Position numbers and translations under genes: made by a program. This document shows, piece after piece, positions 2,856 to 64,000 of a stretch of DNA of 64,000 bases; the first letter of the stretch is position 1; each line of letters begins with the position of its first letter. Location: NCBI GenBank assembly GCA_030681195.1, contig JAUXXJ010000047.1, forward strand, positions 19,643-83,642. Reading direction: 5' to 3'. Below the pieces are notes generated by a model. It worked only from the letters and a program-made list of their open reading frames with translations. It was not told where the DNA came from and searched no databases. The DNA is from Rhodocyclaceae bacterium. Lineage in GTDB: Bacteria > Pseudomonadota > Gammaproteobacteria > Burkholderiales > Rhodocyclaceae.

Positions 2856-3288
2856 TACCCGCCCGCAGCGCCCGCGCGGCTTTGCCATCGCTTCGGCAAT
2901 CTTTATCCTGGTGGTACTAGCGGCGTTGGCGGCCTTCATCGTCTCGGTTACCGCGACACAGAGCCTCACCTTTGCACAGGATATCCAAGGCGCCCGTGCC
3001 TACCAGGCAGCCCGCGCCGGGGCAGAATGGGGCATTGCCCGTTGGCTCGGTAATACGCCCAGCCTTCCCGCCAACTGCCCGGATACGATACCAACCGGCG
3101 CAACGGGAACACTGAACTTTGCCGAGCCGGGGCCATCCGGCTTCACCACCACGGTTCGTACGGCGCTGACGACGACGGCGGGCGTCCGTTTTTGTACGAT
3201 CGAGGCAACCGCGGTGGCGACCGGCGCGACAGTGGGCTCGCATAATTATGTCGAGCGCCAAGTGCGCGCCGTGGTTGAAGGCAACTGA
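2836..3288 (+). CDS. PilX/MshP-like pilus assembly protein
   Basis: N-terminal hydrophobic anchor RGFAIASAIFILVVLAALAAF, small size, and position between the MshO-like and MshQ-like genes. Confidence 0.55.
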   Translation: MSTICPDTRPQRPRGFAIASAIFILVVLAALAAFIVSVTATQSLTFAQDIQGARAYQAARAGAEWGIARWLGNTPSLPANCPDTIPTGATGTLNFAEPGPSGFTTTVRTALTTTAGVRFCTIEATAVATGATVGSHNYVERQVRAVVEGN

Positions 3289-3293
3289 TGCCA

Positions 3294-3318
3294 TGCCGTG
3301 TCCTCAGCGCCGACTTTT
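3294..3318 (+). repeat. Dispersed 26-nt motif, copy 2
   Basis: tgccgtgtcctcagcgccgactttt, intergenic, just after the MshP-like stop. Confidence 0.85.
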
Positions 3319-3328
3319 GGAATAAGCT

Positions 3329-31692: not shown

Positions 31693-32745
31693 TTAAGCGA
31701 ATACATCGACAAGACCACGCCCGACCTTGAGGGCTGAAGTGGCTGAATCGTGATCTGAAGATGCCATGATGGACGACTTTCCAGCAGAAGTCTCAGGATG
31801 AGCAGCGAATTTATCCGGGTTTTTCTCTTGTTGAGCGGAGTGGCGTGCGTTTTCGGCGCCTACCTGCGCCTGCCCGAGTTGGATGCCTGCTTCGGCAAGC
31901 GCTTCACGCAAGCGCGGCAGGGCCGATTCGAGGGCTTCACGAACAACCGGGTTGGCCGAGGCAAACGAAGCGGTCGCCTGATCACCCGAAACCGTCAGGC
32001 TGACTTCCACACGGCCCATTTGCGGTGGGTTCAACACCAGTTCAGCCCGACCTTCAGAGCGATTCGCCATCCAGACGATGCGTTGGCCGACTTCCTGGCC
32101 CCAGCCTGCCGCCCCAACGGGTTGGCTGACGGTCATGGTCGCGGGTGCATTGGATGGGCTGGCGGTGGCAATGACTTGTTGAACAACATTGGACATGTTG
32201 GTCGGTTGGCCGGATTGTTTGTTGCTGTCGATGGCGGCGGTGAGTTTGGCAGCGAATTCACGGCCGCTACCCACCTCATCTTTGCCTTCACCAAGCCCGA
32301 CGCCGATGCCCCGAGAGGTCTTTGCTTGCCCGAGGGGGGGCTCGATTTCGCCTCTCAATCCGGCAAGGGGTTTGTTGCCAAATTCAATGGCATCCTCACC
32401 GGCAGTAATTGCCGGCATAATCGGTGCCGCTTCTGGCGTGAGAGACTGGGCTAGCCCCATGGCTTCCATGAAAGGCAGCAGGGCATCAAGCTCTCCTGCC
32501 GTCTCGCCAGCGCCGACTTTTTGGGTGAGTTCCGTCGCTGCGTCGAGTAAACCTGTCTTGATCCCGGGCGGCGGTTGCTTGCCCATCAGTTGCTGGAACA
32601 GCGCGCCAAACGAGTTCGCTGCAGCCCCCGCGCTGCCCGGATCGGCCGCATCGGTGGATGAAGCGCCTTGCGCACTGCTGCCTTTTGTCTGGGCAATGGC
32701 GGCATTCGCCTGAAGGTTGGCTGGAGTAAAAGTGGTTGCCGTCAT
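31693..32745 (-). CDS. fliK: Hook-length control protein FliK
   Basis: Ala/Gly/Pro-rich N-terminal half and Flg_hook-type C-terminus (AELVLNPPQMGRVEVSLTVSGDQATASF). Start taken at MTATTF; the ORF-track start is 32799. Confidence 0.82.
   Translation of the reverse strand: MTATTFTPANLQANAAIAQTKGSSAQGASSTDAADPGSAGAAANSFGALFQQLMGKQPPPGIKTGLLDAATELTQKVGAGETAGELDALLPFMEAMGLAQSLTPEAAPIMPAITAGEDAIEFGNKPLAGLRGEIEPPLGQAKTSRGIGVGLGEGKDEVGSGREFAAKLTAAIDSNKQSGQPTNMSNVVQQVIATASPSNAPATMTVSQPVGAAGWGQEVGQRIVWMANRSEGRAELVLNPPQMGRVEVSLTVSGDQATASFASANPVVREALESALPRLREALAEAGIQLGQAQVGAENARHSAQQEKNPDKFAAHPETSAGKSSIMASSDHDSATSALKVGRGLVDVFA
32497..32522 (+). repeat. Dispersed 26-nt motif, copy 7
   Basis: tgccgtctcgccagcgccgacttttt, inside fliK (antisense, read as QKVGAGETA). 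Confidence 0.9.
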
Positions 32746-32820
32746 GGAGGCTGTCCTTGCATGAAATGTCCTGCACCACTTACGCAAGGACCATGCCACT
32801 GGCTGTGAGGCAGCGGAAGC

Positions 32821-42350: not shown

Positions 42351-42679
42351 GGTTCAACTTGACTTGGCGTCATAGGTAGGTTGAGCTCGGGCGGCGGCGT
42401 GCTGACGCCTTTCTGTTCAACCTGATAAAGCCAGGCCAACAGTTCGGCGACGGCGATATACAGGATCGGCGGGATGTGATCATCCAGATCCACCTGAGAG
42501 AGCAGGGTGACGAGTTCCGGGGACTCATGGACATAGACGCCATGCTCTTTCGCGCGGGCGATAATTTCATCCGCAATCAAGCCACGTCCCTTCGCCACCA
42601 CTTTCGGGGCACTGTCGCCCGGCGCGTATTTCAACGCAACGGCCAATGAGCGCTCATCCTTGCCTGGCAGCGTGCTCAT
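42347..42679 (-). CDS. Soluble FlhB C-terminal-domain paralog (FhlB/YlqH-like)
   Basis: 110 aa. Aligns by eye with the FlhB cytoplasmic subdomain of this window starting right after the NPTH site (SLAVALKYAPGDSAPKVVAKGRGLIADEII...). No TM region and no NPTH motif. Confidence 0.8.
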   Translation of the reverse strand: MSTLPGKDERSLAVALKYAPGDSAPKVVAKGRGLIADEIIARAKEHGVYVHESPELVTLLSQVDLDDHIPPILYIAVAELLAWLYQVEQKGVSTPPPELNLPMTPSQVEP

Positions 42680-43794
42680 GGGCGGGCAGGTTCTGCTTCA
42701 TGTTTTACTTGCAGGGCAATCAGCGGCACGCCGGCAGCTTCCATCGCCTTGGCCAGTGCCGGCGCTTCATCAAGCAAGTCGGCGGCACTGGCACCATAGG
42801 GCGTGGCCAGTGTGATGCGCATGCCTTGTGCGGTCAGTTGAAGCTTGGCATCGACGCGCCCCAGGCGCGGTGTGGTCAGGGATAACGTGGTACTCCAAAG
42901 GGGTGATTCGTCCTCGCTGCCATCTGTTTCCCGTTCGTTTTCGAGTTCAATCGTCAAGTCCATCGCCTGCTGTGGCCAGACTTCGCCATGCCACGTCATG
43001 CGTTGGGTAGCCAGCGTTTCGAGCTGTTGCTGGACGAGCGGCCGCAGATCATCCGGCACGGGCGATGCGGCTTGCGCAGCCTGGGCAATTTGAGCAGCGG
43101 GTGCCGTCCCACCAGCGCCGACTTTTTCTGCGCCGCCTGCTGGCAGCATGCCCGGCAGCGCGGCGCGGTCTGCCAGGATGCCTGTCCTGGTCGTGCCATC
43201 CGCGCGGGCGTGCTGGCCCTGCGGTTCTTGGAACAGTTGTGCGAGCGGTCGCTGACCATTCACCCACTGTGCCTGATGAGACTCATAAAACAGCCCGCTT
43301 TGAGCCACCGATTTCGCCAGTATGGGGGCCAATTGCGCGGCGGCATTTTGTCCGCTGGGCGGGGCTGGCAGAAGCGGCTCGCCGCGGTTTAGTCGGGCCG
43401 GTACGCTGGCGTTACCTTCGTCAGGGAGCAGGTTACTGATCATGCGGCCGGCCGTGCTGAACCTGGCGAATTCATAGGGGGCGCTGCTGCCGGTCTGCCC
43501 CGTCTCGACCTGCTTGGCCATGATGGTCCTGCCCGCGCGGTCGACCACCACCAGTTCGAGTTCATCTCCCGTCTTTGCACCTTCCGGGAGTTGCAGCGTG
43601 AGCTGCTTGCCGGCAACCAGCGCCTTGTAGGAGTTGTCCGGCAGAACCTCCTGAATGCGTGCCGTGAAAGTCTGCCCCTGGCGTAATTCCGGCAGATCGC
43701 TGCCAATATCGTGCGCCGGACGCACCGGTTGCAACAAGTTGGCATCCGTCTGCATGCGCATACGGATGCCGACATCGGGGGGAATCAGCGCCAT
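42676..43794 (-). CDS. FliK-like protein (second Flg_hook-type C-terminal domain)
   Basis: C-terminus LSLTTPRLGRVDAKLQLTAQGMRITLATP...AMEAAGVPLIALQV parallels the FliK C-terminus at 31693-32745. Translationally coupled to the FlhB paralog. Confidence 0.6.
   Translation of the reverse strand: MALIPPDVGIRMRMQTDANLLQPVRPAHDIGSDLPELRQGQTFTARIQEVLPDNSYKALVAGKQLTLQLPEGAKTGDELELVVVDRAGRTIMAKQVETGQTGSSAPYEFARFSTAGRMISNLLPDEGNASVPARLNRGEPLLPAPPSGQNAAAQLAPILAKSVAQSGLFYESHQAQWVNGQRPLAQLFQEPQGQHARADGTTRTGILADRAALPGMLPAGGAEKVGAGGTAPAAQIAQAAQAASPVPDDLRPLVQQQLETLATQRMTWHGEVWPQQAMDLTIELENERETDGSEDESPLWSTTLSLTTPRLGRVDAKLQLTAQGMRITLATPYGASAADLLDEAPALAKAMEAAGVPLIALQVKHEAEPARP
43102..43127 (+). repeat. Dispersed 26-nt motif, copy 10
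   Basis: tgccgtcccaccagcgccgacttttt, inside the fliK-like gene (antisense, read as EKVGAGGTA). Confidence 0.9.
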
Positions 43795-52051: not shown

Positions 52052-52067
52052 AGCATGAAGTGTGCCA
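52052..52067 (-). promoter_or_regulatory. Candidate sigma54 promoter of the upstream flagellin gene (50226-51968)
   Basis: The minus strand reads TGGCACacttcATGCT. No TAAA-N15-GCCGATAA-like element was seen in this region. Confidence 0.55.
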
Positions 52068-52176: not shown

Positions 52177-53568
52177 TCAGTTTTCCCTGAAGGCGCTAAA
52201 CATGCGCTGGGTGATTGGCTTGAACAGATAAGCCAGGAAGCTTCGTTCGCCCGTCTTGATGATTGCTTCGACCGGCATGCCCGGTCGAAGTTGGCGCGAA
52301 CCTAAGGTGGCCAGGCCTTCTGGGGTGATTTCGATGCGTGCCAGGTAATAGGCTTGTCCGCTCGATGGCTGGCGCATCTGATCGCGCGCGAGCGAGCGTA
52401 CCTGCCCGGCAACGATCAGTTGTGGTTCGTCCGGGAAGGCGTTGATGCGCACGTCGGCAGTCAGGCCGGGATGGATGCGGTCGATGAGGTGGGGTGCGAC
52501 CTGTACGTCTACCAGAAGACGATCCCCTTCCGGAATAATGTCCATCAGGGCGCTGCCTTGCGTGACGGCGCTGCCAGGTGCCAAACCCTGTAAGGAAACG
52601 ACCTGCCCGTCGATGGGTGCTTTTAGAACCGTCCGTTCAAATTCGTCTTTGGCGACGTTGGTTCTTTCCTGTAGCGTCGCTCGCTCGCGGCTTGCTTCGA
52701 TGATGCTGGCCTCGATGTCGCGCTGGATTTCTCTGCGGCGCTGCGCTTGTTGTAGGCGCAACTCGGCCGAGTTATTGGTCGCGATGTTGATGGTGGTCTC
52801 CAGTTCGCTCGCCAGCCGCACCACTTCAACCTGCACACGCTGTGTTTCCAACAGTTGATTGCGCGGCGTGTGGCCGGCATCGACGAGTTTCTTCAAGCCG
52901 CGAATTTGCTCGTCGAGCAGATCGATTTGCTGACGCCGTGAATTGAGCTGCTGGCGCGCCCCCTGCGCGCGGTTCTCGCTCGCGGCGATGCGTTCGCGCA
53001 AAATTCCCAGTTCGTGCGTATGGGAATCATTGCGACTCTCCAGCAGACGCGTTTCGGACATCAGTAGTTCGCGGGCCCATGGCTCGTTGTCTAACAGGGC
53101 AAGATCGGCGGGCATTTCCAGCGCGGGGTTCCCGGCCAGTTCGGCCTGGAGCCGGGCCAACCGTGCCGTGACGGCAAAATACTGCTGCAACGCACTGTTA
53201 AGCGTGGCTTTTTGCTGGGCGTCGTCCAGCGTCAGCAAAACTTCGCCGGATTTGACCGACTGGTTTTCGCTGATATTGAGCTGAGCGATCAGGCCGGATA
53301 CCAGTGGGGTAATGGTCTTGCGCCCCGATTCCACCACGATGCTGCCACTGGCCACCGCCCCTTCGTCGATCGGCGCCAGGCTTGCCCAGGCAAGAAACCC
53401 CACCACGCCATAAAGAATGATGCGCTGGCCAAAGGCGATTGCCCGCTCAAGACTCTTCTCGTTATCCAGGTCGGTTGTGTTGTGGTCTGTAGGCGGGTGT
53501 TTGGTTTGCGATGCTCGGGCGAACAATCGCCGCCAGCCGGTGGAGACTTTATCCGGCATGGGCGGCAT
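52177..53568 (-). CDS. Type I secretion membrane fusion protein (HlyD/AprE family)
   Basis: N-terminal TM segment, long coiled-coil region, lipoyl/beta-barrel segments, and C-terminal PGMPVEAIIKTGERSFLAYLFKP. Confidence 0.9.
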   Translation of the reverse strand: MPPMPDKVSTGWRRLFARASQTKHPPTDHNTTDLDNEKSLERAIAFGQRIILYGVVGFLAWASLAPIDEGAVASGSIVVESGRKTITPLVSGLIAQLNISENQSVKSGEVLLTLDDAQQKATLNSALQQYFAVTARLARLQAELAGNPALEMPADLALLDNEPWARELLMSETRLLESRNDSHTHELGILRERIAASENRAQGARQQLNSRRQQIDLLDEQIRGLKKLVDAGHTPRNQLLETQRVQVEVVRLASELETTINIATNNSAELRLQQAQRRREIQRDIEASIIEASRERATLQERTNVAKDEFERTVLKAPIDGQVVSLQGLAPGSAVTQGSALMDIIPEGDRLLVDVQVAPHLIDRIHPGLTADVRINAFPDEPQLIVAGQVRSLARDQMRQPSSGQAYYLARIEITPEGLATLGSRQLRPGMPVEAIIKTGERSFLAYLFKPITQRMFSAFREN

Positions 53569-55381
53569 CCGCTACGGCAGTGGGAGGGGCGGCGCCGGGC
53601 GACGCAACCGCAGCTGCCGATGGCACTGGTTGGGGCGCAGGTGGGGCAGCCTGAGTGGTTGGCGAAGCGCCGGAAAAAACTTTTGCCAGCACTTGATCGC
53701 GCGGGCCGAATATGACCACTTGACCTGCCTGCATCACGGCGATGGCGTCGCAATGACGAATAGCGGCGGGCCGGTGGCTGACCACAACCACTGTCTGTTT
53801 TTTCTGACGGGCTGAGGCGAGCGCTTTGTCCAGGGCGAGTTCGCCGGCTTCGTCCAGGTTGGCGTTCGGTTCGTCGAGAAAAAGCAGGGGTGGGTTGCCA
53901 TACAGCGCGCGTGCCAGGGCGATGCGCTGACGCTGGCCGCCAGAGAGATAGGCACCGCCGACGCCGACTTGCGTGTCGTAACCCTTGGGCAGTTGCAACA
54001 CCATTTCATGCACGCCGGCCGCCTGGGCAGCCTCAATCACCTTGGTATTGTCGATGTCGCCATGGCGGGCGATGTTTTCCGCCACCGAGCCTTCGAGCAG
54101 TTCGACATCCTGAGGCAAATAGCCGATGTAGGGGCCGATAGCCTGCCGGCGCCATTGCTGCATGTCGGCGCCGTCGATACGCACCACGCCGCCGCGTGGT
54201 AGCCATACGCCAGCCATCAGGCGCATCAGCGTGGATTTCCCCGAGGCACTGGCGCCGATAATCGCGACGCTCAAGCCAGCCGGCACTTTGAGATTGATGC
54301 CACGGATTAACGGCGGATCGACGCCTGGGGCGCCGCCGACCAAGCCCTCCAGTGAAATTTCTCCCTTGGGCGGGGGTAGGGCGACGCTCGAGTAATGACG
54401 CGGTGGCATGCGCAGCACCTTATCGATGCGTTGCCAGGCATCTTGGGCGCCGCCCCATTGTTTCCAGGTTTGAATCAGCTGTTCGATTGGCGCGAGCATG
54501 CGTCCGGAAAGAATTGAGGCGGCAATCATGGCCCCGGGGGAAAGTTCGCCTTGCAGGTATAGATAGGCGCCCACACCGAGGATGATCGATTGCTGGGCGG
54601 CGCGCAAAAAGCGCGTGAGTGCGCCGATCGCCCCTGCGCGCTCGCTGGCGCGTGCCTGTTCCGTGAGGTGTTCGTCCTGTCGATCTTGCCAGCGACGGGT
54701 CATCGAATCGAGCATGCCCATGGCTTCGATGACTTCACTGTTGCGCAGGTTCAGTGTGGCGAAACGCGTGGCTTCGTTGGCGCGCTCGTTGGCGCGCTTG
54801 AGCGGCTCGCGGGTCATGGATTCGGTCAGCCAGGTCAAAAACAATAACAAGCACCCAGCGACCAGTCCCACCATGCCGAGTACCGGGTGGAGCATCATGA
54901 TGACGATGAAGTAAATCGGGACCCAAGGCACGTCAGCGAGGGCGTACACCGCCTGTCCGGTGATGAACTGCCGAACATTGGTCAGATCCACCATCAGCTG
55001 CTTGTTCGAGCCGCCATTCTGTTCGAGGCTGAGGCGGTGCGAGGCATCGAGCAGGCGCTTGCCCAGGGCGTGATCGAAGGCAACGCTGACCGGCACGGCA
55101 ATGCGTGTGCGTGCCCATTCCAGGGCGCCCATCGCTAAATAGGCAAGAATAACCACCAGGCTCATCATGACCAGCGTGGTCAAGTTACGGCTGGTGAGGA
55201 TGCGGTCGTAGATCTGCATCATGAAGATCGACGGCGTGAGCATCAACAGATTGATGACCAGGCTGAAGAACAGCAAGGCGCCCCACGCGGTGGGCATGCC
55301 CAGCAACGTGGTCAAGAGCGGCGATGGCGCGGCGGCTCCGCCGCCCGGTGCCGAAGATGGGTCTGCCGACAATAAGCGCAT
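53549..55381 (-). CDS. Type I secretion ABC transporter permease/ATPase (PrtD/AprD type, no C39 peptidase domain)
   Basis: Six-TM region, Walker A GASASGKST, ABC signature LSGGQRQR, Walker B LLFLDEP. Confidence 0.93.
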   Translation of the reverse strand: MRLLSADPSSAPGGGAAAPSPLLTTLLGMPTAWGALLFFSLVINLLMLTPSIFMMQIYDRILTSRNLTTLVMMSLVVILAYLAMGALEWARTRIAVPVSVAFDHALGKRLLDASHRLSLEQNGGSNKQLMVDLTNVRQFITGQAVYALADVPWVPIYFIVIMMLHPVLGMVGLVAGCLLLFLTWLTESMTREPLKRANERANEATRFATLNLRNSEVIEAMGMLDSMTRRWQDRQDEHLTEQARASERAGAIGALTRFLRAAQQSIILGVGAYLYLQGELSPGAMIAASILSGRMLAPIEQLIQTWKQWGGAQDAWQRIDKVLRMPPRHYSSVALPPPKGEISLEGLVGGAPGVDPPLIRGINLKVPAGLSVAIIGASASGKSTLMRLMAGVWLPRGGVVRIDGADMQQWRRQAIGPYIGYLPQDVELLEGSVAENIARHGDIDNTKVIEAAQAAGVHEMVLQLPKGYDTQVGVGGAYLSGGQRQRIALARALYGNPPLLFLDEPNANLDEAGELALDKALASARQKKQTVVVVSHRPAAIRHCDAIAVMQAGQVVIFGPRDQVLAKVFSGASPTTQAAPPAPQPVPSAAAVASPGAAPPTAVADAAHAG

Positions 55382-55520
55382 CCGAGCATCCTAGTGGAGT
55401 CAGGCTGGCGCAACTCATTGAGTAAAGGGATGATCAGCCGCCTTTCGCAGCAATCGTCCGAGGCTCAGTTGCGTCACACTGCGTTGGTCTATCGGTGTCG
55501 ATATCTTCTTTGGGGTTGCC

Positions 55521-56429
55521 ATGGGCTTGTTATGGATTCCCACCGCGGTCGGAGTCCAATTCGTCATGCTGTACACCTTTCTCGGCGGGCCGGGGGGCTT
55601 GCTGGCGCGGGTGTTCGGTCATTCCCTGTTCGTCACGACAGCGGGATGGGAGCGAGTCCATTTCGGCTTGCCGATGGCCTTGGTGCTGGCCTTTCCTTCC
55701 CTGATGGTGCTGGCGATAATCGAAAAATGGCTGCATCCTGTTGGATTGCTTGACATTGCCGTCGTCCAAGGCGTGGGCCTTGTCATGATCCTGGCGTGGC
55801 TCAAGCACCATCGCGTCCCCAAGCGCATCGCCACTGTGGGCGAGGCAGAAGGTTTGGCGATACCTTCGCCCTGCCCGGTGAGTGATGTTTTGGCCGTTCC
55901 GCCAGCGCCGACTTTTTTTACTAGGCTTGAGCCACCCGTTCAGATGGCCCTGCCCCAACCGGCGGTGGTCGCGGTTTCTCCGAACGAATGTTTGCTGAGA
56001 TGGTTAAACCGGCGCTATCAATGGGATTGCATCGGTTCTGCGCGTACATTTGAGGAACTGCGTCAAGCGCCGCCCGCCGCACAATTGATGCCGCACCATC
56101 TCGCTTTCTGGGGCGCGCAGCGCTACGCGAGTCTGCGTGGTGTGCTTGAGGCCAGTCTGACGGCGCTGCGGGCCAACAAGGGTGTGCCTGAATTGCAGTC
56201 ATCGGCTGAAGATTTCTTTCCCGATGAGGAAGACTACCTGGATGACGTCCTGCGCCGCTTGGTGTGTTCGGTGTATTTCTCGCATGAACCGTTATTCCTC
56301 GACCAAAATGATCTCGAATTGTGCGGCATGGAGAATGTGCGCATCATGTATCGCCTGGCACTGTGGGCGGTGCGGAACGGACCAGAGAATCTGCCGTTGC
56401 CGCAGGCGCACGCGCAGCAACTGCATTGA
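55521..56429 (+). CDS. Hypothetical membrane protein (three predicted TM segments plus a soluble C-domain)
   Basis: The only long ORF in the roughly 960-bp gap between the T1SS ABC and TolC genes, and on the opposite strand. Its 3' end overlaps the tolC-like ORF end by about 86 nt. No recognisable motifs. Confidence 0.4.
   Translation: MGLLWIPTAVGVQFVMLYTFLGGPGGLLARVFGHSLFVTTAGWERVHFGLPMALVLAFPSLMVLAIIEKWLHPVGLLDIAVVQGVGLVMILAWLKHHRVPKRIATVGEAEGLAIPSPCPVSDVLAVPPAPTFFTRLEPPVQMALPQPAVVAVSPNECLLRWLNRRYQWDCIGSARTFEELRQAPPAAQLMPHHLAFWGAQRYASLRGVLEASLTALRANKGVPELQSSAEDFFPDEEDYLDDVLRRLVCSVYFSHEPLFLDQNDLELCGMENVRIMYRLALWAVRNGPENLPLPQAHAQQLH
55892..55919 (+). repeat. Dispersed 26-nt motif, copy 12
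   Basis: ggccgttccgccagcgccgacttttttt, inside the 302-aa hypothetical ORF (read as VPPAPTFF). Confidence 0.9.
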
Positions 56430-57822
56430 CGCCTGCAAGCAGTTCGCCGCCGCCGAGGGCCTTGTACAACTGGGCCGCATTCTCCAGTTGCGCGCGCCGA
56501 ACCTGCAGCGAAAATTGTTGCGTAGCGAGCCATTCGCGGCGCGCATCCAACACATTCAGCATGCTTGCGACGCCGGCCTCGCGGCGTGCTTCGACAATCT
56601 GCAAGCGTTGGTCGTTGATGTTTAGCTGCCTTGCGACGGTGTGAAACTGATCCAGCAGGCTGCTCCTCACCGCCAGCAAATCGGCCACTTCGCGAAATGC
56701 CTCCTGCAAGGTTTTTTCGTAGGCGGCAATCGCCTCCGTGCGCCGCGCGACGTTAACATCCACCTGCCCCTGGGTGCGACCGCCGTCGAGCAAGGGTAAT
56801 GTCAGGCTTGGCTGGAAATTCCAGGCGGCATTGCCGGCGCCTAACAGGCGCGACAGGGAGCCACTGGCCAAGCCGAGGGCGGCTGTGAGCATGATCTTCG
56901 GCAAAAAGGCGGCGCGCGCCGCATCGACACTGGCATAGGCTGCCTTCAGGCGTTCTTCCGCCACCACGACATCGGGACGCGCCAGCAAGACCTCGGCAGG
57001 CAGTCCAGCCGCAAGGTTGTTCACCACCTCTTGGTCGCCAAGAGGGTTGCCCGGCGGCAGTTCATCGGGCATGCGTCCTACCAGCAGCGCCAATTTGTTG
57101 CGTGCCTGCGCCTGTTGCCGTTCGAGGGTGGCCACTTCCGACTTGGCGCCTTCGAACGTGCCTTCGGCCGTCAGTGTCTCCATGTCCGAGGCGAAGCCGG
57201 TCGTTTGCGCCAGCCGGATCAAGTCCAGCGTGCGCTGGCGCAACTGCACTGTCTCGCGCAGCAGTCCGAGGCGCTCTTCGGCATCGAGCAGAGAGAAATA
57301 AGTGTTGGCGACTTCGCCGATCAGGCTGAGGCGAACCCCGCGTTGGGCTGCCGCATTGGCCAGATATTGGGCGCGCTGAGCCGCCGAAAGGCTGCCCAGA
57401 CGGTTCCATAAATCGATTTCGAACGATACGACGCCCACGGACAAATCGGTACGCCGCGAGATGCGATCATTGCCCTCGCCGGCAAGTTCTGCCGACATGC
57501 CGGTAATATTTTGACTGCCGGTGGCCTTGAGGGCAGGCCAGCGTTCGGCTTCGGCAAGACCGTACTCGGCACGGGCAGCTTCGAGGCGCGCAGCGGCGAT
57601 GTGCAGATCCCGGTTATGGGTCAGCGCTGTGTCAATCAGGGCTTGCAGGCGTGGATCAGGGAAAAACTCCTGCCAGCGGGTGAGTCGGGCGTCGCGTTCT
57701 AGGGCCGATGGGGCTGGCGCAGACCAGCGGCTTTCGATTGGCGGGGCAGGGCGCACGAACTCCTCGGCGCCGAAACAGCCGGACAGCAGGAAGGGAAGGA
57801 TGGCAAGGCGGATACGGTGCAT
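56344..57822 (-). CDS. TolC/NodT-family outer membrane channel lipoprotein
   Basis: Lipobox LLSGC, two OEP repeats, LYKALGGG near the C-terminus. Start at MHRIRLAIL; the ORF-track start is 57849. Confidence 0.9.
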   Translation of the reverse strand: MHRIRLAILPFLLSGCFGAEEFVRPAPPIESRWSAPAPSALERDARLTRWQEFFPDPRLQALIDTALTHNRDLHIAAARLEAARAEYGLAEAERWPALKATGSQNITGMSAELAGEGNDRISRRTDLSVGVVSFEIDLWNRLGSLSAAQRAQYLANAAAQRGVRLSLIGEVANTYFSLLDAEERLGLLRETVQLRQRTLDLIRLAQTTGFASDMETLTAEGTFEGAKSEVATLERQQAQARNKLALLVGRMPDELPPGNPLGDQEVVNNLAAGLPAEVLLARPDVVVAEERLKAAYASVDAARAAFLPKIMLTAALGLASGSLSRLLGAGNAAWNFQPSLTLPLLDGGRTQGQVDVNVARRTEAIAAYEKTLQEAFREVADLLAVRSSLLDQFHTVARQLNINDQRLQIVEARREAGVASMLNVLDARREWLATQQFSLQVRRAQLENAAQLYKALGGGELLAGVNAVAARAPAATADSLVRSAPPTVPGDT

Positions 57823-57880
57823 GTCCCGGTAGACACGCAAAAATCGCACCAGACTAGCGGCAGCTATTTTGCCGTGAGGT

Positions 57881-59137
57881 TTAGCCGCGCTTTTTCAGCA
57901 CGAATTCAATACTGCATTCCGCCATCGGCGTGCGCGTCTGGTCGACGCCGCGCGGCAGGGTGGCCGCGCGGTAGCCCTGGTCGATCAGCTGGAGTGACAG
58001 GATTTCTACCTGCGCGCGGAATTCGCCAAGCAGGTCGAGCAGGTTGACCGATACCGGCGACCATGAGGAAGGCTTGGCGATGGTGAAGCTGATCTTGTGG
58101 TCGCTATTGAAGCGGCTTGGCCACTGGCCCTGTTCGTAGAGGTCCTCGTCCGGTACAGCGATGACAAGATGGCCACCGGGTTTGACCACGCGCAGCCAGT
58201 TGGCCAGCGCGTCGCGTGCGTCGCGCATGTGTTCGAGGCAATGCGAGGAATAGAGGAAGTCAAAGCTGTCGTCGAGGATGTTGGCCAGCGTTTGCGCGTC
58301 GCCGTGCGGTTGGTCATAGACGAAAATGTTGCGCGCCAGCGGAAAAAACTCCTTGTAGAGCGACAGTGAATCGATACCACCGCCTACATCGATACCATTG
58401 CCCTTGAAGTAGCGGGTGGCGAAGCGGCTGTCGGCCAGGCGGCGCTGCATCGAGATGGCGGTCACGCCCGGCACCACGTCCGCGCGGTATTGCAGGGGGC
58501 CGGAAGCATCTTGCGGGCGGATGTTGATCCAGGTTTTGCGGTCGAGCGCAACGGTTTTCGGCGCAAGGATCAGGTAACCCTCGTCGTCTCGCAGCAGGTA
58601 GGAAGCATGGGTTTCTTTCAGCCGCTCGATGCGTGCCATGAGGGCGGGCTTTTCGTTCCAGCGGCGGGCGAATTCGGGACATTCGCCATTTTGGAACGCG
58701 CCATCGAAATACATGCGCACGTCGTCCATGACAATCACGCTGCGCGAGAGGTCGCCAGCCAGCAGGATGTCGAACTCCTCGATCAGCGGAAAGCTGCCGG
58801 GGTCGCGTGCCGACTCGACATAAGTAGTTAGCCCAAAATCGGCGCCACCGAGAAAATGCGCGTCGAGGAAGTAAAAGCTTGCCGTCCCGCCAGCGCCGAC
58901 TTTTTGCAGAAACGCCTTGCTTTCCCCCTGTTCCAGATGCACCTGCGGAAACGCGGCAAAGCGCTTCTGGCAGGCTTGGTAAAGCGGTTCGGCCAGTTCG
59001 ACGGAATGCAGCTCCGGGAAACCGCAGCGTACCGCCCAGGCGAGCGAATCGCCGCGACCGGTGCCGGTTTCGATCAGGCGCTCAAGCCTGAATGTTTCGC
59101 GCAAGTGGCGCAGGTTAAAGCGCAGCAGACTGCCCAT
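57881..59137 (-). CDS. Two-domain class I SAM-dependent methyltransferase
   Basis: N-domain has motif I-like IETGTGRGDS. C-domain has IDVGGG ... FDFLYSSHCLEHM ... VKPGGHLVIAVP (Methyltransf_11/23-like). Confidence 0.7.
   Translation of the reverse strand: MGSLLRFNLRHLRETFRLERLIETGTGRGDSLAWAVRCGFPELHSVELAEPLYQACQKRFAAFPQVHLEQGESKAFLQKVGAGGTASFYFLDAHFLGGADFGLTTYVESARDPGSFPLIEEFDILLAGDLSRSVIVMDDVRMYFDGAFQNGECPEFARRWNEKPALMARIERLKETHASYLLRDDEGYLILAPKTVALDRKTWINIRPQDASGPLQYRADVVPGVTAISMQRRLADSRFATRYFKGNGIDVGGGIDSLSLYKEFFPLARNIFVYDQPHGDAQTLANILDDSFDFLYSSHCLEHMRDARDALANWLRVVKPGGHLVIAVPDEDLYEQGQWPSRFNSDHKISFTIAKPSSWSPVSVNLLDLLGEFRAQVEILSLQLIDQGYRAATLPRGVDQTRTPMAECSIEFVLKKRG
58880..58905 (+). repeat. 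Dispersed 26-nt motif, copy 13
   Basis: tgccgtcccgccagcgccgacttttt, inside the methyltransferase gene (antisense, read as QKVGAGGTA). Confidence 0.9.
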
Positions 59138-59141
59138 GATG

Positions 59142-62100
59142 TCATTTTCCTTTCTTCTTCTTGGCGGCGGCGCGCAAATCCTTTGCCAGGCGCACCAGCG
59201 GCGCCGACCAGTCCTTGCGCTTGTCTTGACGGTACAAGGTCAGGGTCGGATACCAGGGGGAGTCTGCCCGATCCCACAGCCAGCGCCAGTCCGGAAGACG
59301 GGGCAAAAGTACCCGTGTTTTCACGCCAAGCGCGCCGGCCAGATGCGCCACCGAGGTATCCACGGTCAGCAGTTCGTCCAGTTCGCCGAGAATCGCGGCG
59401 GTATCCTCGAAATCCACAATTTCCGGGTCGAGATTGAGCAATCTTGTCTTTGACGACAAGGTGGCTATCTGGCTGACGGGCTCGCCCTTTTGCACCGAGA
59501 CGAAATCGAAACGTGGGTCGGACAGCAGAGCGGTGAATTGTTCGAGCACGATTGAGCGATTGGCGTCGTTGCCGTGTGTCGGCCGGCCGGCCCAGACAAT
59601 GCCGACGCGATAGTTTTTCAAGTCGGCCAGGCGCGCGTGCCAGTGCGCCTGCTTTTCCGGCAGGGCTTGCAGATAGGGCACCGCAGCGGGAATGCTGGCT
59701 AGCCTGGTGTTCAAGGCACGCGGCAAGCTCAAGAGCGGGCAGTGCAGGTCGCAGGCCGGCAGCGACTCGCCGCCTTTGACCAGGAACGTCACCCCGGGAA
59801 TGCGCGCCGCGAAACTTTCCAGGCTGGGCTGGACGACCAGCACCACCTCGGCACCGCGCGCCGCAACCAGCGGGATGTAGCGCAAAAACTGAAATGTGTC
59901 GCCAAAACCCTGCTCGGCATGAATCAGGATGCGCTTGCCCGCAATATCCTCGCCCAGCCATTGTGGGCGGTTGAAGTGGCGCACTTCCTTGCAATCCGGT
60001 TGCAGCCAGCGGCATTCGTAATGCCCCCAGCCAGCGTCCAGATCGCCCAGCATTAATTCGAGCAGCGATTCATGCAACTGCGCGCGCACATGCTGTGGGT
60101 CGATGGCCAGCGCCTGCCGAAATGCCGCCAGTGCGCCGGGAAAATCCTCGATTTCGCGCAGTACCACACCGAGGTTGTACTGGTACTCGGCCATCGTCGG
60201 TGCCAGGCTGACGGCACGGCGTGCCGCAGCAATGGCTTCCTCCCAGCGACCGAGAGCCCCCAGCGTGTTACCGAGATTCGATTGTGCGCCAGCATTGTTT
60301 GGGTCAATCTGTACCGCACGCTGCTGGTGAATGACCGCCTCATCCAGCCGGCCCAGCGCCTTGAGGAAGGCGCCCAGATTCGACCAATTGGCCGGGTCGC
60401 CAGCGTTAAAGCGTGCCGCCCGAGCTCCGAACAGCGCGGCCGGATAGTGCTGCTGGTCGCGCCAGGCGCCCACGGCCAGCAAATTCCAGGCATGGGCATG
60501 AAACGGGTGTTGCCGCAAGCCAGCCCAGGCGAGGGTTGTGGCCGTGTCCGCTTCGCTACGTTCCAGCGCTGTTCTGGTTTGCTCAAACAAAAAGTCGGCG
60601 CTGGCGGGACGGCGCTCGCTGCCGGGGATGAGGTCGTCCAGCGCGGTATGTGCCGCGCTGACCACGCCGGCCCAATCGCCGGGGCGGATCTGGCGAAACA
60701 GCCTAAGACTTGGGTACCACGGGCTGTCGTCGCGCGCCAGACGCCAGCGCCAGTCGGGCATGTAGGGCAGCAGTAACCAGGTCGGCACACCCAGCGCACC
60801 TGCCAGGTGGGCGACCGAGGTGTCGACGCACACGAGCAGATCCATCTGCGTCAATGCGGCGGCGGTGTCGGCGAAGTCCTTGAGATGGGGCGCGAGGTCG
60901 ATGATCTGTTGCCCCAGACCGAGGGCCGCAATATCGGCCGCCCTTGCACCGAACTGCAGTGAAAAGAACGTGCAGTTGGCGGCATTCAGCAAGGGCTGCA
61001 GGGCGGCCAGCGGCATTGAACGATTGGCGTCGTTGCTGTGCGCCGGGTTGCCCGCCCACACCAACGCGATACGCAGGCGTGTGACATGCGTGCTCATGCG
61101 CTGCTGCCAGGCAAGGGTGCGTTCGGTGCCGACCTCCAGGTAGGGCACCGGTGCCGGCACGCTCAGGCGGTCGATGCCCAGCACATGCGGTAGCGAGAGC
61201 AGGGGACAGACCGCCTCCACCTTGGGCATGACGGCGCCCGTGGTGACGACCGTTATCTGGGGATGCTTGGGAATGAGTGTTTCCAGCCCGCTCTGCACGG
61301 CGAAGACAATCCGGCCTTCCGGACCAATGCGTGTTGCTACCTGGGGCAGGTAACGGAGGAATTGCACGCTGTCGCCGGCACCCTGCTCGGAATGAAGGAA
61401 CAGCGTTTTGCCCGGCAACACCTCGCCGCGCCAGAGTGGATGGGTTTCCGCCATGCGCCGGCCGGGAAAGCCCAGTACGTCGAAGCGGTGCTCATAGTCG
61501 GCAAAGCCGCCCGTCAGGTCACCGGCCAGCAGACGCGCCAGGCCACGGTTGTAGATTACCGCCGGATAGTCTGGCTGGAGCGCCAGCCCGTGATCAAAGC
61601 AGTCGATGGCCTCGGCCGGGCAGTGACGTTCGGACCAGATGCGCGCCAGCAATCCCCAGGCATCCGCCTTGACGGTGGGTGTCGCTTCCCGGGCGAGCGT
61701 GGCGTGAAACTCGGCCTCGGCAGCGGCGGGGTGACCCAGTTCCAGCAGCGTTTTGCCCAGCATCAGGCGGTAGCCGGCATGGGCCGGCTGCAGGCGCACG
61801 GCGCTGGCGTAGTGGGTTAGTGCCTCGGCGTAGCGCCTGCGATCGAACAGCAGGTTGCCCAGGTTGCCGTGTGCGCCGTCGTTGTCCGGTTCGATTGCCA
61901 GGCTGCGTTGGTAGGCGGTAATCGCTTCATCGCTACGGCCCAGCGTCTTGAGGGCGACGCCCCGGTTGGCATGGCCGCGCGCCACACCGGGCTCCAGCGC
62001 AACCAGCCGGTCGAAACAGTCCACCGCCTCCTCGCCACGCCCGGCGCGTTGCAGCAGGACGCCGAGGTTATTCCAGGCATCGGCAAAACCGGGGTCGTGT

Positions 62101-62231
62101 TCGAGTACCTGGCGATAAAGCGGCTCGGCTGCTGCCGCATCGTCGGCCTGCTGCTTTTCCAAGGCGGCAGAAAAAACCCCCGCGCCGGAGCGCAGGGGTG
62201 CGGGTGGGGGGGCAGATACAGCCAAGGTCAC
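59142..62231 (-). CDS. Tandem-duplicated TPR + GT9-like glycosyltransferase protein
   Basis: Two successive modules of TPR repeats followed by ...EQG(A/F)GD(S/T)xQFLRY...(V/I)VWAG(N/R)PxHxNDANRS...DTSVAHLAGALG...DWRW...SPWYP..(L)(F/Y)RQ. 1029 aa. Confidence 0.75.
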   Translation of the reverse strand: MTLAVSAPPPAPLRSGAGVFSAALEKQQADDAAAAEPLYRQVLEHDPGFADAWNNLGVLLQRAGRGEEAVDCFDRLVALEPGVARGHANRGVALKTLGRSDEAITAYQRSLAIEPDNDGAHGNLGNLLFDRRRYAEALTHYASAVRLQPAHAGYRLMLGKTLLELGHPAAAEAEFHATLAREATPTVKADAWGLLARIWSERHCPAEAIDCFDHGLALQPDYPAVIYNRGLARLLAGDLTGGFADYEHRFDVLGFPGRRMAETHPLWRGEVLPGKTLFLHSEQGAGDSVQFLRYLPQVATRIGPEGRIVFAVQSGLETLIPKHPQITVVTTGAVMPKVEAVCPLLSLPHVLGIDRLSVPAPVPYLEVGTERTLAWQQRMSTHVTRLRIALVWAGNPAHSNDANRSMPLAALQPLLNAANCTFFSLQFGARAADIAALGLGQQIIDLAPHLKDFADTAAALTQMDLLVCVDTSVAHLAGALGVPTWLLLPYMPDWRWRLARDDSPWYPSLRLFRQIRPGDWAGVVSAAHTALDDLIPGSERRPASADFLFEQTRTALERSEADTATTLAWAGLRQHPFHAHAWNLLAVGAWRDQQHYPAALFGARAARFNAGDPANWSNLGAFLKALGRLDEAVIHQQRAVQIDPNNAGAQSNLGNTLGALGRWEEAIAAARRAVSLAPTMAEYQYNLGVVLREIEDFPGALAAFRQALAIDPQHVRAQLHESLLELMLGDLDAGWGHYECRWLQPDCKEVRHFNRPQWLGEDIAGKRILIHAEQGFGDTFQFLRYIPLVAARGAEVVLVVQPSLESFAARIPGVTFLVKGGESLPACDLHCPLLSLPRALNTRLASIPAAVPYLQALPEKQAHWHARLADLKNYRVGIVWAGRPTHGNDANRSIVLEQFTALLSDPRFDFVSVQKGEPVSQIATLSSKTRLLNLDPEIVDFEDTAAILGELDELLTVDTSVAHLAGALGVKTRVLLPRLPDWRWLWDRADSPWYPTLTLYRQDKRKDWSAPLVRLAKDLRAAAKKKKGK
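60589..60614 (-). repeat. Dispersed 26-nt motif, copy 14
   Basis: Complement reads cgccgtcccgccagcgccgacttttt, inside the TPR-glycosyltransferase gene at the junction of its two modules (read as RRPASADFLF). Confidence 0.9.
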
Positions 62232-62250
62232 GCCGACCTGCGTCTGTGCA

Positions 62251-64000
62251 TCAGTTCGACCAGGCGAAGTCGGTCTCGCTTACAGCTGGGGCATCAAGCA
62301 GACGAATCCTCATGTCGGCCACGCCATCGCCATTGGCATCGACCATCAGATCGGAATAGGTTTTACCACCGACCTCATACGCCGCAGTTTGATAGGCTTG
62401 GCTGTTGCCCGTGTTGGTAAAACTGGTGGCGTCGTTGAGGAACGTGAAGCTGCCGTTTTGCATGCCCTGGAAGACGAGTTTATCCTCGCCACCACTGAAG
62501 TCCTCGATGGTATCGAAGACGGTCAGCGAAGACTGTGTCGTTGCGGTGTACTTGAACTGGTCCTCACCGGCACCGCCCGTCAGGGTGTCGGCGCCCACGC
62601 CGCCGACCAGCACGTCGTTGCCGTTGCCGCCGATCAGGGTGTCGGCGCCGCTGTTGCCGACCAGGGTGTCGTTGCCGTCGCCGCCTTCGAGGCGGGCGGC
62701 AGCTGTGGTCAAGACCATGATGGTGTCGTCGGATAGTCCGCCGATGACGGTTTCGACGTTCTGCACCGACACCCAGTTGTTGCCACCGTTAGCCAGCGTC
62801 AGGCTGTCGATGCCGCCACCGAGGTTGTAGGTATGGCCCGACACGGCCTCAAGCAGCTTGACATGGTCGTTGGCGCTGCCGGCGACGAGCGTTTCCACTC
62901 CCTTGATCTCGACGTAGTTGGTACCGCTGCCGAGCAGGGTCAGCCGGTCGCTGAAGCTGCCATCCCCGAGGTCGATATGACCGTAGGTGATGTTGTCGCC
63001 GTCCTTGCTGCCGATCGTCGAGGTGAGCGTGATGTTGTCGGAGAAATTGCTGCCGATGATCGTCTCCGCATTGGCGACGCTGAGCGTACTTGCTCCCTGG
63101 GCCTGTGTGAGATTGAGCGTGTCGTTGCCGGCCCCGAGGTTATAGTTGCCCGAAGCTTGGGCCACCGTGATCTTGACGTAGTCGTCACCCGTGCCGCCCA
63201 CTACCGTTTCGATCCCGGAAACCGACACGGTGTTGTTGCCCGCACTCGACAGGATCAGGCGATCGGTACCGGCGCCGAGGTTATAGATCGTGCCACTGAC
63301 GGCTTCACTCAGCGTGATGGTATCGGCGCTGGTACCGCCGGTGACGGTATGCACGCTGGCGCCAAGGGTCAGGTTGTTGGTGGCATTGGCGAGGCTGATG
63401 CGGTTGTCGGTCCCGCCACCCAGGTTGTAATTGCTGCCGGCTTGCGCCGTTGTGAAGGTGATGTGGTCATTCCCTGAGCCACCGACGATGGTTTCGACGC
63501 TGCTGACCGAAAGGGTGTTGCCACCATCCGCGAGCAGGATCTTGTCGTTGCCGCCGCCCAGGTTGAGCACCATTCCGGAGACGCTGCCACCGGTGAGATC
63601 GATGGTGTCCACGCCGCTGTTGCCAACCACGGTCGTGACGTTCTTGACGCTCACGCTGTTGGTGCCGCTGCCCAGGTTGAGGCGGTTGGTACCACCGCCC
63701 AGATCCACCTCGGCACCGGTGATGGCGGCCCCGAAGGTGATGACGTCATTGCCGGCGCCACCGACCACTGTTTCGACATTGGAGACCGTGAGGGTGTAGT
63801 GCTTGGTGTCGTCGCCGGTAAGCTCCAGTTTGTCGTCGCCGGCGCCCAGGTTGATCTGTCCACCGTTCTGTCCGCCAGTCAGGGTGACATGGTCGTCGGC
63901 AGCGATGGTGGCATGACCGGTGATGGTCTCGACCCCCGAAGCGCTGATGGTGTTTGCCGCCGGGGTCTCGGTCGTGCCACCAAAGAGCACGATGCGGTCG
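62251..64000 (-). CDS. RTX-type repeat protein, probable T1SS substrate (N-terminus outside the window)
   Basis: The frame stays open to the window edge. Degenerate ~45-aa repeats (VETIVGGxGNDxIT...YNLGxGxD.L.L). C-terminal nonapeptide Ca-binding repeats (GGDGNDTLVGNSGADTLIGGNGNDVLVGGVGADTLTGGAGED) and a DTIEDFSGGEDKLVF-type T1SS C-terminal target domain. Confidence 0.85.
   Translation of the reverse strand, partial: DRIVLFGGTTETPAANTISASGVETITGHATIAADDHVTLTGGQNGGQINLGAGDDKLELTGDDTKHYTLTVSNVETVVGGAGNDVITFGAAITGAEVDLGGGTNRLNLGSGTNSVSVKNVTTVVGNSGVDTIDLTGGSVSGMVLNLGGGNDKILLADGGNTLSVSSVETIVGGSGNDHITFTTAQAGSNYNLGGGTDNRISLANATNNLTLGASVHTVTGGTSADTITLSEAVSGTIYNLGAGTDRLILSSAGNNTVSVSGIETVVGGTGDDYVKITVAQASGNYNLGAGNDTLNLTQAQGASTLSVANAETIIGSNFSDNITLTSTIGSKDGDNITYGHIDLGDGSFSDRLTLLGSGTNYVEIKGVETLVAGSANDHVKLLEAVSGHTYNLGGGIDSLTLANGGNNWVSVQNVETVIGGLSDDTIMVLTTAAARLEGGDGNDTLVGNSGADTLIGGNGNDVLVGGVGADTLTGGAGEDQFKYTATTQSSLTVFDTIEDFSGGEDKLVFQGMQNGSFTFLNDATSFTNTGNSQAYQTAAYEVGGKTYSDLMVDANGDGVADMRIRLLDAPAVSETDFAWSN

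Follow-up and report, generated by a model that had tools for sequence, protein, structure and literature searches.

A TPR-glycosyltransferase and a methyltransferase encoded between a giant RTX protein and type I secretion genes in a betaproteobacterial flagellar region: a candidate system for cytoplasmic glycosylation before export

HlyC-type acylation is a well-characterized pre-export modification of type I secretion system (T1SS) substrates, and the loci of Gram-positive serine-rich-repeat adhesins bring together a giant repetitive adhesin, the O-glycosyltransferases GtfA/GtfB and the accessory SecA2/SecY2 export components. In Caulobacter crescentus and Brevundimonas, the tetratricopeptide repeat (TPR) domain of the glycosyltransferase FlmG binds flagellin and its GT-B domain transfers pseudaminic or legionaminic acid (PMC7591256; bioRxiv 10.1101/2022.03.25.485807). 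In the cytoplasm, TibC hyper-O-glycosylates Ser/Thr residues of a long adhesin that is built of beta-helical repeats and encoded beside it, and both TibC and AAH draw their sugar, ADP-heptose, from the housekeeping pathway, so that dedicated sugar genes are unneeded (PMC4358343). The HMW1C/HMW1 locus, in turn, holds a cytoplasmic glycosyltransferase, a giant secreted adhesin and a dedicated secretion partner (PMC3012730). Glycosylated RTX proteins also exist, namely the cyanobacterial SwmA and oscillin, which are motility-linked surface proteins with calcium-binding repeats, and the part of an RTX review that covers them names no enzyme for their glycosylation (PMC3034196). Here we describe a stretch of 64,000 nucleotides from a Rhodocyclaceae bacterium (GCA_030681195.1, contig JAUXXJ010000047.1, positions 19,643 to 83,642; the window), in which genes for a two-module TPR-glycosyltransferase (GT) and a methyltransferase (MT) lie between the gene of a giant RTX-type protein and those of a T1SS. 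We predict, with a probability of roughly one half, that the RTX protein is O-glycosylated in the cytoplasm, with methylation, before its export, and that flagellin is possibly modified too.

The genes are transcribed from the minus strand in the order RTX, GT, MT, NodT channel, gap, ABC transporter, adaptor, two flagellins and FliD (Table 1), and the block stands at the high-coordinate edge of the window, an extensive betaproteobacterial region of flagellar genes. An earlier note on this DNA, made from the letters alone, had named these genes, and all of them are present on that strand where it placed them. The close packing of 4-31 nt that it gave for the first four genes is borne out, with 19 nt between RTX and GT, 4 nt between GT and MT and 31 nt between MT and the outer membrane factor (OMF), as is the interruption ahead of the ABC and adaptor genes, a gap of 962 nt with an opposite-strand ORF inside it. 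The ABC and adaptor ORFs overlap by 20 nt, and 208 nt separate the adaptor from the first flagellin. The TPR-GT is the sole glycosyltransferase gene among the ORFs scanned in the 64-kb region.

The same pairing of RTX and GT genes is found at ten orthologous loci, comprising the window (L001), a Rhodocyclaceae metagenome-assembled genome (MAG; L003), two Comamonadaceae/Rhodoferax genomes (L004, L005), Chitinilyticum piscinae (L082), Limnohabitans (L083), Curvibacter (L084) and three metagenome contigs (L085, L086, L088), the last of which represents the at least one further close locus that the metagenome scan yielded. In all ten, the orthologous GT gene directly follows a giant RTX gene in the same direction, at gaps of 0-166 nt, and orthology across the set holds for the first GT module as well as for the last. 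Since the RTX-GT-MT-T1SS arrangement recurs in this manner, it is not a chance juxtaposition. Around the RTX-GT pair, the position and orientation of the T1SS genes, the type of MT and the flagellar neighbors vary; the last are not always filament genes, being DUF2802, fliK and flhB-like genes in L085 and flgE-like and flgK genes in L086. An MT is present in nine loci and is of the Methyltransf_23/11 type, the FkbM type or both. T1SS genes are adjacent in seven of the nine informative loci, being co-directional after GT and MT in the window, L003 and L085 and convergent in Comamonadaceae. Limnohabitans displays a co-directional run of fliC, fliD, fliS, fliT, ABC, adaptor, OMF, a second, single-module GT and MT, an order that four other Comamonadaceae loci keep as far as they are sequenced. 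In Limnohabitans and Curvibacter, the ABC, adaptor, OMF, single-module GT and MT genes overlap or lie 1-12 nt apart, and judging by this spacing the Comamonadaceae single-module GT and MT look like members of one operon with the secretion genes. In Chitinilyticum piscinae, the giant protein, the GT and an MT of the two-domain type are followed by purEK, a gene for a GGDEF protein and unrelated genes; the 10 kb downstream, the side covered here, hold no flagellar or ABC/adaptor genes, and the start of an OEP gene appears at the end of the locus. Because the giant RTX gene is the constant neighbor of the window clade and the Comamonadaceae GT and MT appear operonic with T1SS genes, we favor the RTX protein as the acceptor.

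As an observation in its own right, the L086 contig (13644-15523) carries genes for a WbuX/PseA-type N-acetyl-sugar amidotransferase and a formyltransferase between its TPR-GT genes, downstream of the giant RTX ortholog and upstream of flgE-like and flgK genes, which hints that this lineage uses a modified amino sugar.

The window reaches into the 3′ end of the RTX gene, whose complete form (contig JAXMKW010000032.1 of the groundwater metagenome MAG GCA_034371265.1) encodes 3,670 aa. Across the 3,326 residues of this protein on which composition, repeats and motifs were counted, there is a Gly/Thr/Asn/Asp-rich repeat with a period of 47 aa (approximate consensus LxLAxGxNxLTVSNVETIxGGTGNDxVTLGxAVxGxxIxLGG) and a GGxGxD motif in each repeat, 47 such motifs in all. 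Gly makes up 17.6%, Thr 14%, Asn 9% and Asp 9% of the residues, Pro, Cys and Trp are nearly absent, and five columns of the repeat hold Ser or Thr in 60-86% of the copies. The C-terminus matches a serralysin-type RTX block (HemolysinCabind, PF00353, E 4e-11; Peptidase_M10_C, PF08548, E 1.5e-15), after which comes a tail, DxDGNGxADMKxxLxG...S.SDFxW, that is conserved among the orthologs at the nine other loci. With GGxGxD repeats near a conserved C-terminal tail, the protein has the features of an RTX/T1SS substrate and is presumed to be both the substrate of the T1SS and the candidate acceptor of glycosylation. The earlier note had also read it as rich in N-x-S/T sequons. Its 65 sequons, set against 60.6 +/- 6.2 in shuffled sequences, are not enriched, and the apparent richness is therefore explained by composition alone. 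A homolog search with the C-terminal fragment returned proteins of up to 1,019 aa, and the giant orthologs were not among them.

The full-length AlphaFold2 model of the GT shows two consecutive modules, each consisting of a TPR superhelix followed by a Rossmann-type domain (Table 1). The TPRs are of the OGT type, as seen from PDB sequence matches to the TPR regions of OGT and SPINDLY (E down to 4.6e-43), which run through the TPRs, and from the Asn contained in most of their NLG motifs. Modeled by itself (pLDDT 91), the GT domain retrieves from the PDB by Foldseek, as its best match, the Veillonella GT9 structure 3tov (E 2.6e-8, TM 0.63), along with WaaF (1psw), WaaC (2h1h) and TibC (4rb4/4rap; E 5e-5, TM 0.55). 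GT41 structures are absent from the 50 best Foldseek matches listed for this domain, and Glyco_transf_41 is not among the Pfam families listed for the protein. A fold search with the full-length model is dominated by TPR matches (OGT, SPY, APC and Ski3) and is uninformative on the catalytic domain. In sequence comparisons, PF01075 scores 34.6 bits over only 48 of its 247 positions, at the nucleotide-sugar motif DTSxAHLAGALG; TIGR02193 reaches 28.9 bits against a cut-off of 185.3, which falls short of a full-length lipopolysaccharide (LPS) heptosyltransferase match; and a sequence profile of the GT domain finds no glycosyltransferase among PDB sequences at E up to 10, TibC included. Across 26 homologs, both modules keep the motifs HAEQGxGD, DTSxAHLAGALG and PDWRW...SPWYP without variation, and on this account both look catalytically competent; one Cys alone is invariant in the GT-domain alignment. 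The structural classification that the earlier note had proposed thus yields, on the models, a catalytic GT-B fold that is GT9-like, with TibC among its relatives, within a TPR-GT-TPR-GT protein whose overall architecture is FlmG/OGT-like.

These features set the enzyme between the described systems. Like FlmG, it is a predicted cytoplasmic protein that joins an N-terminal TPR region to a C-terminal GT-B domain of ~285 aa, a likeness of architecture; in both cases the acceptor would be exported unfolded through a narrow channel, and many relatives of the window GT adjoin flagellin and flaF, as flmG does. Unlike FlmG, it carries the module twice in one polypeptide, and relatives have three copies; the gene of a giant RTX/T1SS substrate is the constant neighbor of its clade; an MT is nearly always present; and the window ORFs scanned include no genes for pseudaminic or legionaminic acid. 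NCBIfam has no FlmG model, none of the matches of the window GT is named FlmG, and the paper on Burkholderia FlmQ gives no information on its domains (PMC4462625). With TibC and AAH (the BAHT family) it shares the GT9-related catalytic fold, whereas it has no detectable sequence similarity to TibC and bears TPR helices in place of the N-terminal beta-barrel, beta-hairpin thumb and four-Cys iron finger of TibC. Nor does it give any sign of the TibC dodecamer, and its candidate substrate exits by T1SS and not, as that of TibC, by Sec and an autotransporter. It is thus not a member of the BAHT family, and neither is it a GT41 enzyme. The resemblance to HMW1C extends from the joint encoding of transferase, giant adhesin and export partner to the TpsA or TpsB genes that adjoin relatives of the window GT, and it ends at the chemistry, since HMW1C is a GT41 N-glycosyltransferase acting on N-x-S/T (PMC3012730). 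On a GT9-like fold and unenriched sequons we reject N-glycosylation of the HMW1C kind, at which the earlier note had hinted, as unsupported.

The MT was described in that note as a two-domain S-adenosylmethionine (SAM) methyltransferase. Its C-terminal domain fits this description, with a class I SAM domain at residues ~245-350 (58088-58405) that scores 49.1 against a cut-off of 27 with PF13489 and 45.8 against 21.2 with PF08241, and the N-terminal 215 residues find no match in Pfam, NCBIfam or the PDB by sequence or profile. We detected 471 homologs, some of the close ones with an additional TylF-type domain. TylF enzymes are sugar O-methyltransferases, and methyltransferases of the FkbM and TylF types typically modify sugars.

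All three export components score above the cut-offs of their families. The ABC transporter is of the PrtD/AprD type (TIGR01842, 694.7 against 510), and because the match spans residues 36-568 of its 610 aa it leaves no room for an N-terminal C39-like domain; the adaptor belongs to the HlyD family (TIGR01843, 317.7 against 208.65); and the OMF is of the NodT family (TIGR01845, 344.3 bits against 210), remaining below the cut-off of the TolC T1SS model TIGR01844 (97.7 against 225). In the principal ORFs scanned between 52177 and 64000 there is no match to an HlyC-family acyltransferase. The proposed system resembles HlyC in that a cytoplasmic enzyme from an RTX/T1SS operon modifies the substrate before export (PMC3034196), and differs from it in that HlyC, of an unrelated enzyme family, acylates Lys. 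With the Gram-positive serine-rich-repeat loci it shares the logic of the locus, the differences lying in the GT families, the export system (accessory Sec against T1SS) and the Gram-positive envelope. In our literature searches, no TPR-GT was described in connection with a T1SS substrate.

From the gene content, the fold class and the conserved neighborhoods, we infer a route in which the acceptor, the donor, the order of the steps and the co-transcription of the genes are all predicted. The 3,670-aa Thr-rich RTX protein would be synthesized in the cytoplasm, where free calcium is low and RTX repeats consequently stay unfolded. The OGT-like TPR superhelices of the GT may then hold the extended chain, and its two GT9-like GT-B domains would move a sugar from a nucleotide sugar to the recurring Ser/Thr residues of the 47-aa repeats. 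The donor is possibly a housekeeping sugar, e.g., ADP-heptose as for TibC, a choice compatible with the block because it carries no sugar-synthesis genes. The MT would subsequently methylate the sugar, or possibly the protein, after which the modified chain would take the neighboring T1SS (PrtD-type ABC transporter, adaptor and NodT channel) out of the cell and fold there with calcium. The flagellins encoded downstream are a possible second acceptor.

Beyond the ten loci, the GT family spans many phyla, with over 560 relatives in each collection scan, and filamentous cyanobacteria are among the holders of relatives of the window GT. GT9-like domains of the family, with or without TPRs, adjoin two-partner-secretion (TPS) genes at four loci, and no flagellar genes are present in the stretches examined of these. 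In Paraburkholderia sediminicola (L077), three TPR-GT genes precede that of a TPS-domain protein of >2,538 aa; a metagenome contig (L170) combines an MT 57% identical to that of the window, a single-module TPR-GT and a TpsA of 3,680 aa; in one Caballeronia replicon (L171), an 817-aa gene that is annotated as TpsB and follows a filamentous-hemagglutinin-type gene ends in a GT9-like match; and another (L172) has an MT-GT9-like fusion after a TpsB gene, with no TpsA listed. The recurring pattern is that a gene of the GT family adjoins the gene of a long protein exported unfolded, be it flagellin, TpsA or a giant RTX protein. ORFs of >1,300 aa near family loci are not clearly more frequent than in random neighborhoods, and the enrichment of giant neighbors is suggestive only. 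On this pattern we tentatively propose, as a possibility that we hold to be somewhat less than even, that a TPR-GT9-like enzyme, usually with an MT, constitutes a general and widespread cytoplasmic glycosylation cassette for giant or repetitive proteins that are exported unfolded, i.e., flagellins through the flagellar type III secretion system, TpsA proteins and giant RTX proteins.

Several further relatives were observed. A Rhodospirillaceae MAG (L029, 4272-9245 and 15611-16429) has an array of TPR-GT genes, one of them fused to an MT domain homologous to the C-terminal domain of the window MT, and then, at the contig end, an RTX-like ORF that is a homolog of the RTX repeat protein. In a Rhodocyclales MAG (L087, 8284-10026), a TPR-GT9-like protein fused to a GNAT acetyltransferase domain comes directly after a three-module TPR-GT. 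Giant Ser/Thr/Gly-rich repeat ORFs of 1,890 to >3,261 aa, which match no Pfam family, adjoin TPR-GT genes at planctomycete and alphaproteobacterial loci (L046, L062, L065). In Citrobacter koseri (L168, 10001-15846), an MT homolog with 41% identity lies inside a flagellar gene cluster, beside two GT2 genes, a stand-alone GT9 and a gene with a FliB_C match and with no RTX gene among these neighbors; this cluster looks like a flagellin modification island.

That last cluster belongs to the case for flagellin as the only acceptor, in which the TPR-GT and MT would form an FlmG-like flagellin modification system and the RTX and T1SS genes would be mere neighbors, e.g., those of an unmodified adhesin co-regulated with the flagellum. 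The following points speak for it and weigh against a modified RTX protein. FlmG, a characterized enzyme of TPR-GT architecture, glycosylates flagellin by way of its TPR domain (PMC7591256). Flagellar genes lie within 10 kb in seven of the eight informative RTX-GT loci, and the flagellar link is therefore nearly as constant as the RTX link. Among 78 genome loci of the wider family, 25 are within 10 kb of flagellin, FlaF, FlgK or FliD genes; flagellin, FlaF and FlgK are the commonest neighbors other than GTs family-wide; in Geobacteraceae and several Alphaproteobacteria, the GT is directly upstream of flagellin and flaF; and a Ralstonia TPR-GT is ~3.5 kb from fliE-fliK. The L086 amidotransferase of the PseA/WbuX type near flgE/flgK and the standing of the TPR-GT as the one glycosyltransferase gene scanned in a flagellar region can be read in the same direction. 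Further points count against a modified RTX protein in themselves: the ten loci are a single orthologous clade, so that their number is inflated by gene order kept through descent; a terminator-like hairpin stands between the RTX gene and the GT; the sequence was found solely in groundwater metagenome DNA runs and in no RNA run; and a large T1SS review, in the part covered here, says nothing of glycosylated T1SS substrates.

Against flagellin alone stands, first, that it is the giant RTX gene, not flagellin, which constantly adjoins the GT in this clade. In the window, the flagellin genes are 7-10 kb downstream of the GT, beyond four to five genes (the MT, three T1SS genes and the opposite-strand ORF), and they carry sigma-54- and sigma-28-type motifs of their own (Table 1), for which reason they need not depend on the upstream block. 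Chitinilyticum keeps RTX, GT and MT with no flagellar genes downstream, the Comamonadaceae GT and MT appear operonic with T1SS genes, the TPS clusters with GT9-like domains (two of them with an MT) are free of flagellar genes in the stretches examined, and the scanned ORFs of the window include no Pse/Leg/Neu-type biosynthesis genes. The conservation survey that the earlier note had envisaged leans toward the RTX reading, the RTX-GT pair being universal in the clade and free of downstream flagellar genes in Chitinilyticum, with most of the informative loci nevertheless near flagellar genes. The choice between RTX and flagellin, on which that note had not settled, is moved toward RTX by this survey, and flagellin retains a claim through the 7/8 clade loci, the 25/78 family loci, the Citrobacter MT and FlmG; we regard flagellin as the sole acceptor as rather unlikely. 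Modification of the RTX protein is the reading to which the invariant RTX-GT pairing, the TPS-linked relatives, the TibC-like fold, an acceptor with 14% Thr, the conserved Ser/Thr columns, the known RTX glycoproteins and the flagellins' own promoter motifs point, and in it the flagellins may be an alternative or additional acceptor. The near-constant flagellar embedding may indicate co-regulation with the flagellum or a function related to it.

Transcription signals in the block are sparse. A sigma-70 promoter scan of 47.5-64 kb gave no sites, and sigma-54 and sigma-28 scans of the coding strand of the RTX-T1SS block gave none with at most one mismatch, the plausible sites lying solely before the flagellins. 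A hairpin and T-run similar to that of the window is found 3′ of the RTX gene in L003, L086 and L088, and in the window and L003 the T-run codes for a conserved Phe of the GT N-terminus. The hairpin, a strong one, could be an attenuator through which the accessory genes are expressed less than the structural gene; a terminator with this effect stands between the substrate gene hlyA and hlyB, ahead of the export genes. As a separate matter, the adjacent flagellin genes, both of them long (580 and 586 aa), differ in their promoter-type motifs, one being sigma-54-like and the other sigma-28-like, an arrangement that recalls the differential flagellin control of Vibrio, Campylobacter and Helicobacter.

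It is also conceivable that the acceptor is not a protein, being instead lipid-linked or a polysaccharide (e.g., an LPS-core-like or surface glycan bound by the RTX protein), or that the TPR protein is mainly a chaperone or scaffold. Most of the solved GT9 structures recovered are LPS-core heptosyltransferases, yet the window GT scores far below the cut-offs of the LPS heptosyltransferase families; and the invariant motifs of both modules argue for catalysis. FkbM- and TylF-type methyltransferases, of generally sugar-modifying role, occur in related loci, and the MT family is also found alone among housekeeping genes in some genomes. Likewise, 53 of the 78 family loci lack flagellin, FlaF, FlgK and FliD genes at distances of up to 10 kb, and a giant exoprotein gene is near a minority of family loci only. 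The OGT-like TPR arrays fused to each GT domain, on the other hand, point to a protein partner, and the block holds no membrane segments and no polysaccharide export or polymerization genes. We consider this alternative distinctly improbable.

That the linkage is functionally meaningless, a mosaic of neighbors kept by descent in one betaproteobacterial clade, is very improbable: the single clade and the two breaks in the block, at the hairpin and at the 962-nt gap with its opposite-strand ORF, would agree with it, but the RTX-GT pair outlasts inversions and replacements around it in three orders, the GT domains have been recruited independently to TPS loci and fused to MTs, and the gene overlaps in Comamonadaceae suggest translational coupling.

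The rest of the window is flagellar in content. Its ORFs include a cheA fragment, flhBAF, fliA, motAB and flgA, together with further, unscanned plus-strand ORFs placed as expected for a flg operon, and also fliR, fliP, fliK, fliIHGF, ycgR, fliT, fliS and fliD, with a fleSR-like pair of a histidine kinase and a sigma-54 activator. The opposite-strand ORF in the OMF-ABC gap, which overlaps the 3′ end of the OMF gene by 86 nt, encodes three hydrophobic helices at its N-terminus, matches no Pfam or NCBIfam family and is kept at the equivalent place in the Rhodocyclaceae MAG L003 (140 bits). FliD is more than twice the length of its best-matching NCBIfam model (PRK08032, 465 aa). There are two separate genes with a Flg_hook (FliK hook-length-control) domain (31693-32799 and 42676-43794, both on the minus strand). 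Between the cheA fragment and flhB (2043-6241, plus strand), a pilin-like protein with an N-terminal methylation motif is encoded together with a 970-aa DUF6701/DUF11 protein; the two genes may be a pair of the MSHA pilus type.

Table 1. Positions in the window of the candidate modification and secretion genes, their domains and the neighboring features
Feature	Position	Strand	Basis or remark
Giant RTX-type gene, 3′ end, 583 codons	62251-64000 (window end)	-	Pfam HemolysinCabind, Peptidase_M10_C
Terminator-like G+C-rich hairpin and T-run	62176-62199	-	52 nt after RTX stop, inside annotated GT 5′ end
Two-module TPR-GT, 1,029 aa (P0001)	59142-62231	-	Pfam; AlphaFold2 mean pLDDT 89
TPR domain 1, residues 16-251	61479-62186	-	Pfam TPR families; helical repeats in model
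GT9-like GT-B domain 1, residues 254-540	60612-61472	-	PF01075 partial match, residues 437-484
TPR domain 2, residues 543-743	60003-60605	-	Pfam TPR, PDB sequence matches, model
GT9-like GT-B domain 2, residues 745-1029	59145-59999	-	AlphaFold2 and Foldseek
MT, 418 aa	57881-59137	-	Class I SAM domain in C-terminal half
OMF, NodT family	56344-57849	-	PF02321; TIGR01845
Opposite-strand ORF, 302 aa	55521-56429	+	In OMF-ABC gap
ABC transporter, PrtD/AprD type, 610 aa	53549-55381	-	TIGR01842
HlyD-family periplasmic adaptor	52177-53568	-	TIGR01843
Sigma-54-type motif TGGCACACTTCATGCT	52052-52067	-	Upstream of flagellin 1; one mismatch to TGGCAC-N5-TTGCW; consensus match only
Flagellin 1, 580 aa	50226-51968	-	Flagellin_N, Flagellin_C
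Sigma-28-type motif TAAAG-N14-GTCGATAA	50084-50110	-	Upstream of flagellin 2; one mismatch; consensus match only
Flagellin 2, 586 aa	48251-50011	-	Profile match
FliD, 1,006 aa	44620-47640	-	Three Flagellin_IN motifs in expanded central region

What would be new here is cytoplasmic protein glycosylation coupled to T1SS, a route for which none is described within a kind of system that is known. If the RTX protein is indeed modified as we predict, a sugar-and-methyl line for a giant RTX protein would represent a new class of T1SS accessory enzyme, and heavily glycosylated chains would be able to traverse the ABC/adaptor/TolC-type conduit; the way in which SwmA and oscillin acquire their sugars might likewise be explained. 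Should the broader proposal of a general cassette hold as well, this would be the first dedicated glycosylation system for a T1SS substrate. The idea is directly testable because cultured isolates carry the module, namely Chitinilyticum piscinae, Rhodoferax mekongensis and Curvibacter sp. APW13. On the broader proposal, the embedding of the betaproteobacterial RTX/GT/MT/T1SS module in flagellar clusters would suggest a glycosylated RTX fiber that is functionally coupled to flagellar motility or to a switch from swimming to attachment. For the family at large, the comparative result suggests that a TPR reader joined to a small GT9-like transferase has been reused for three secretion routes, which would offer a natural test bed for acceptor specificity encoded in TPR domains.

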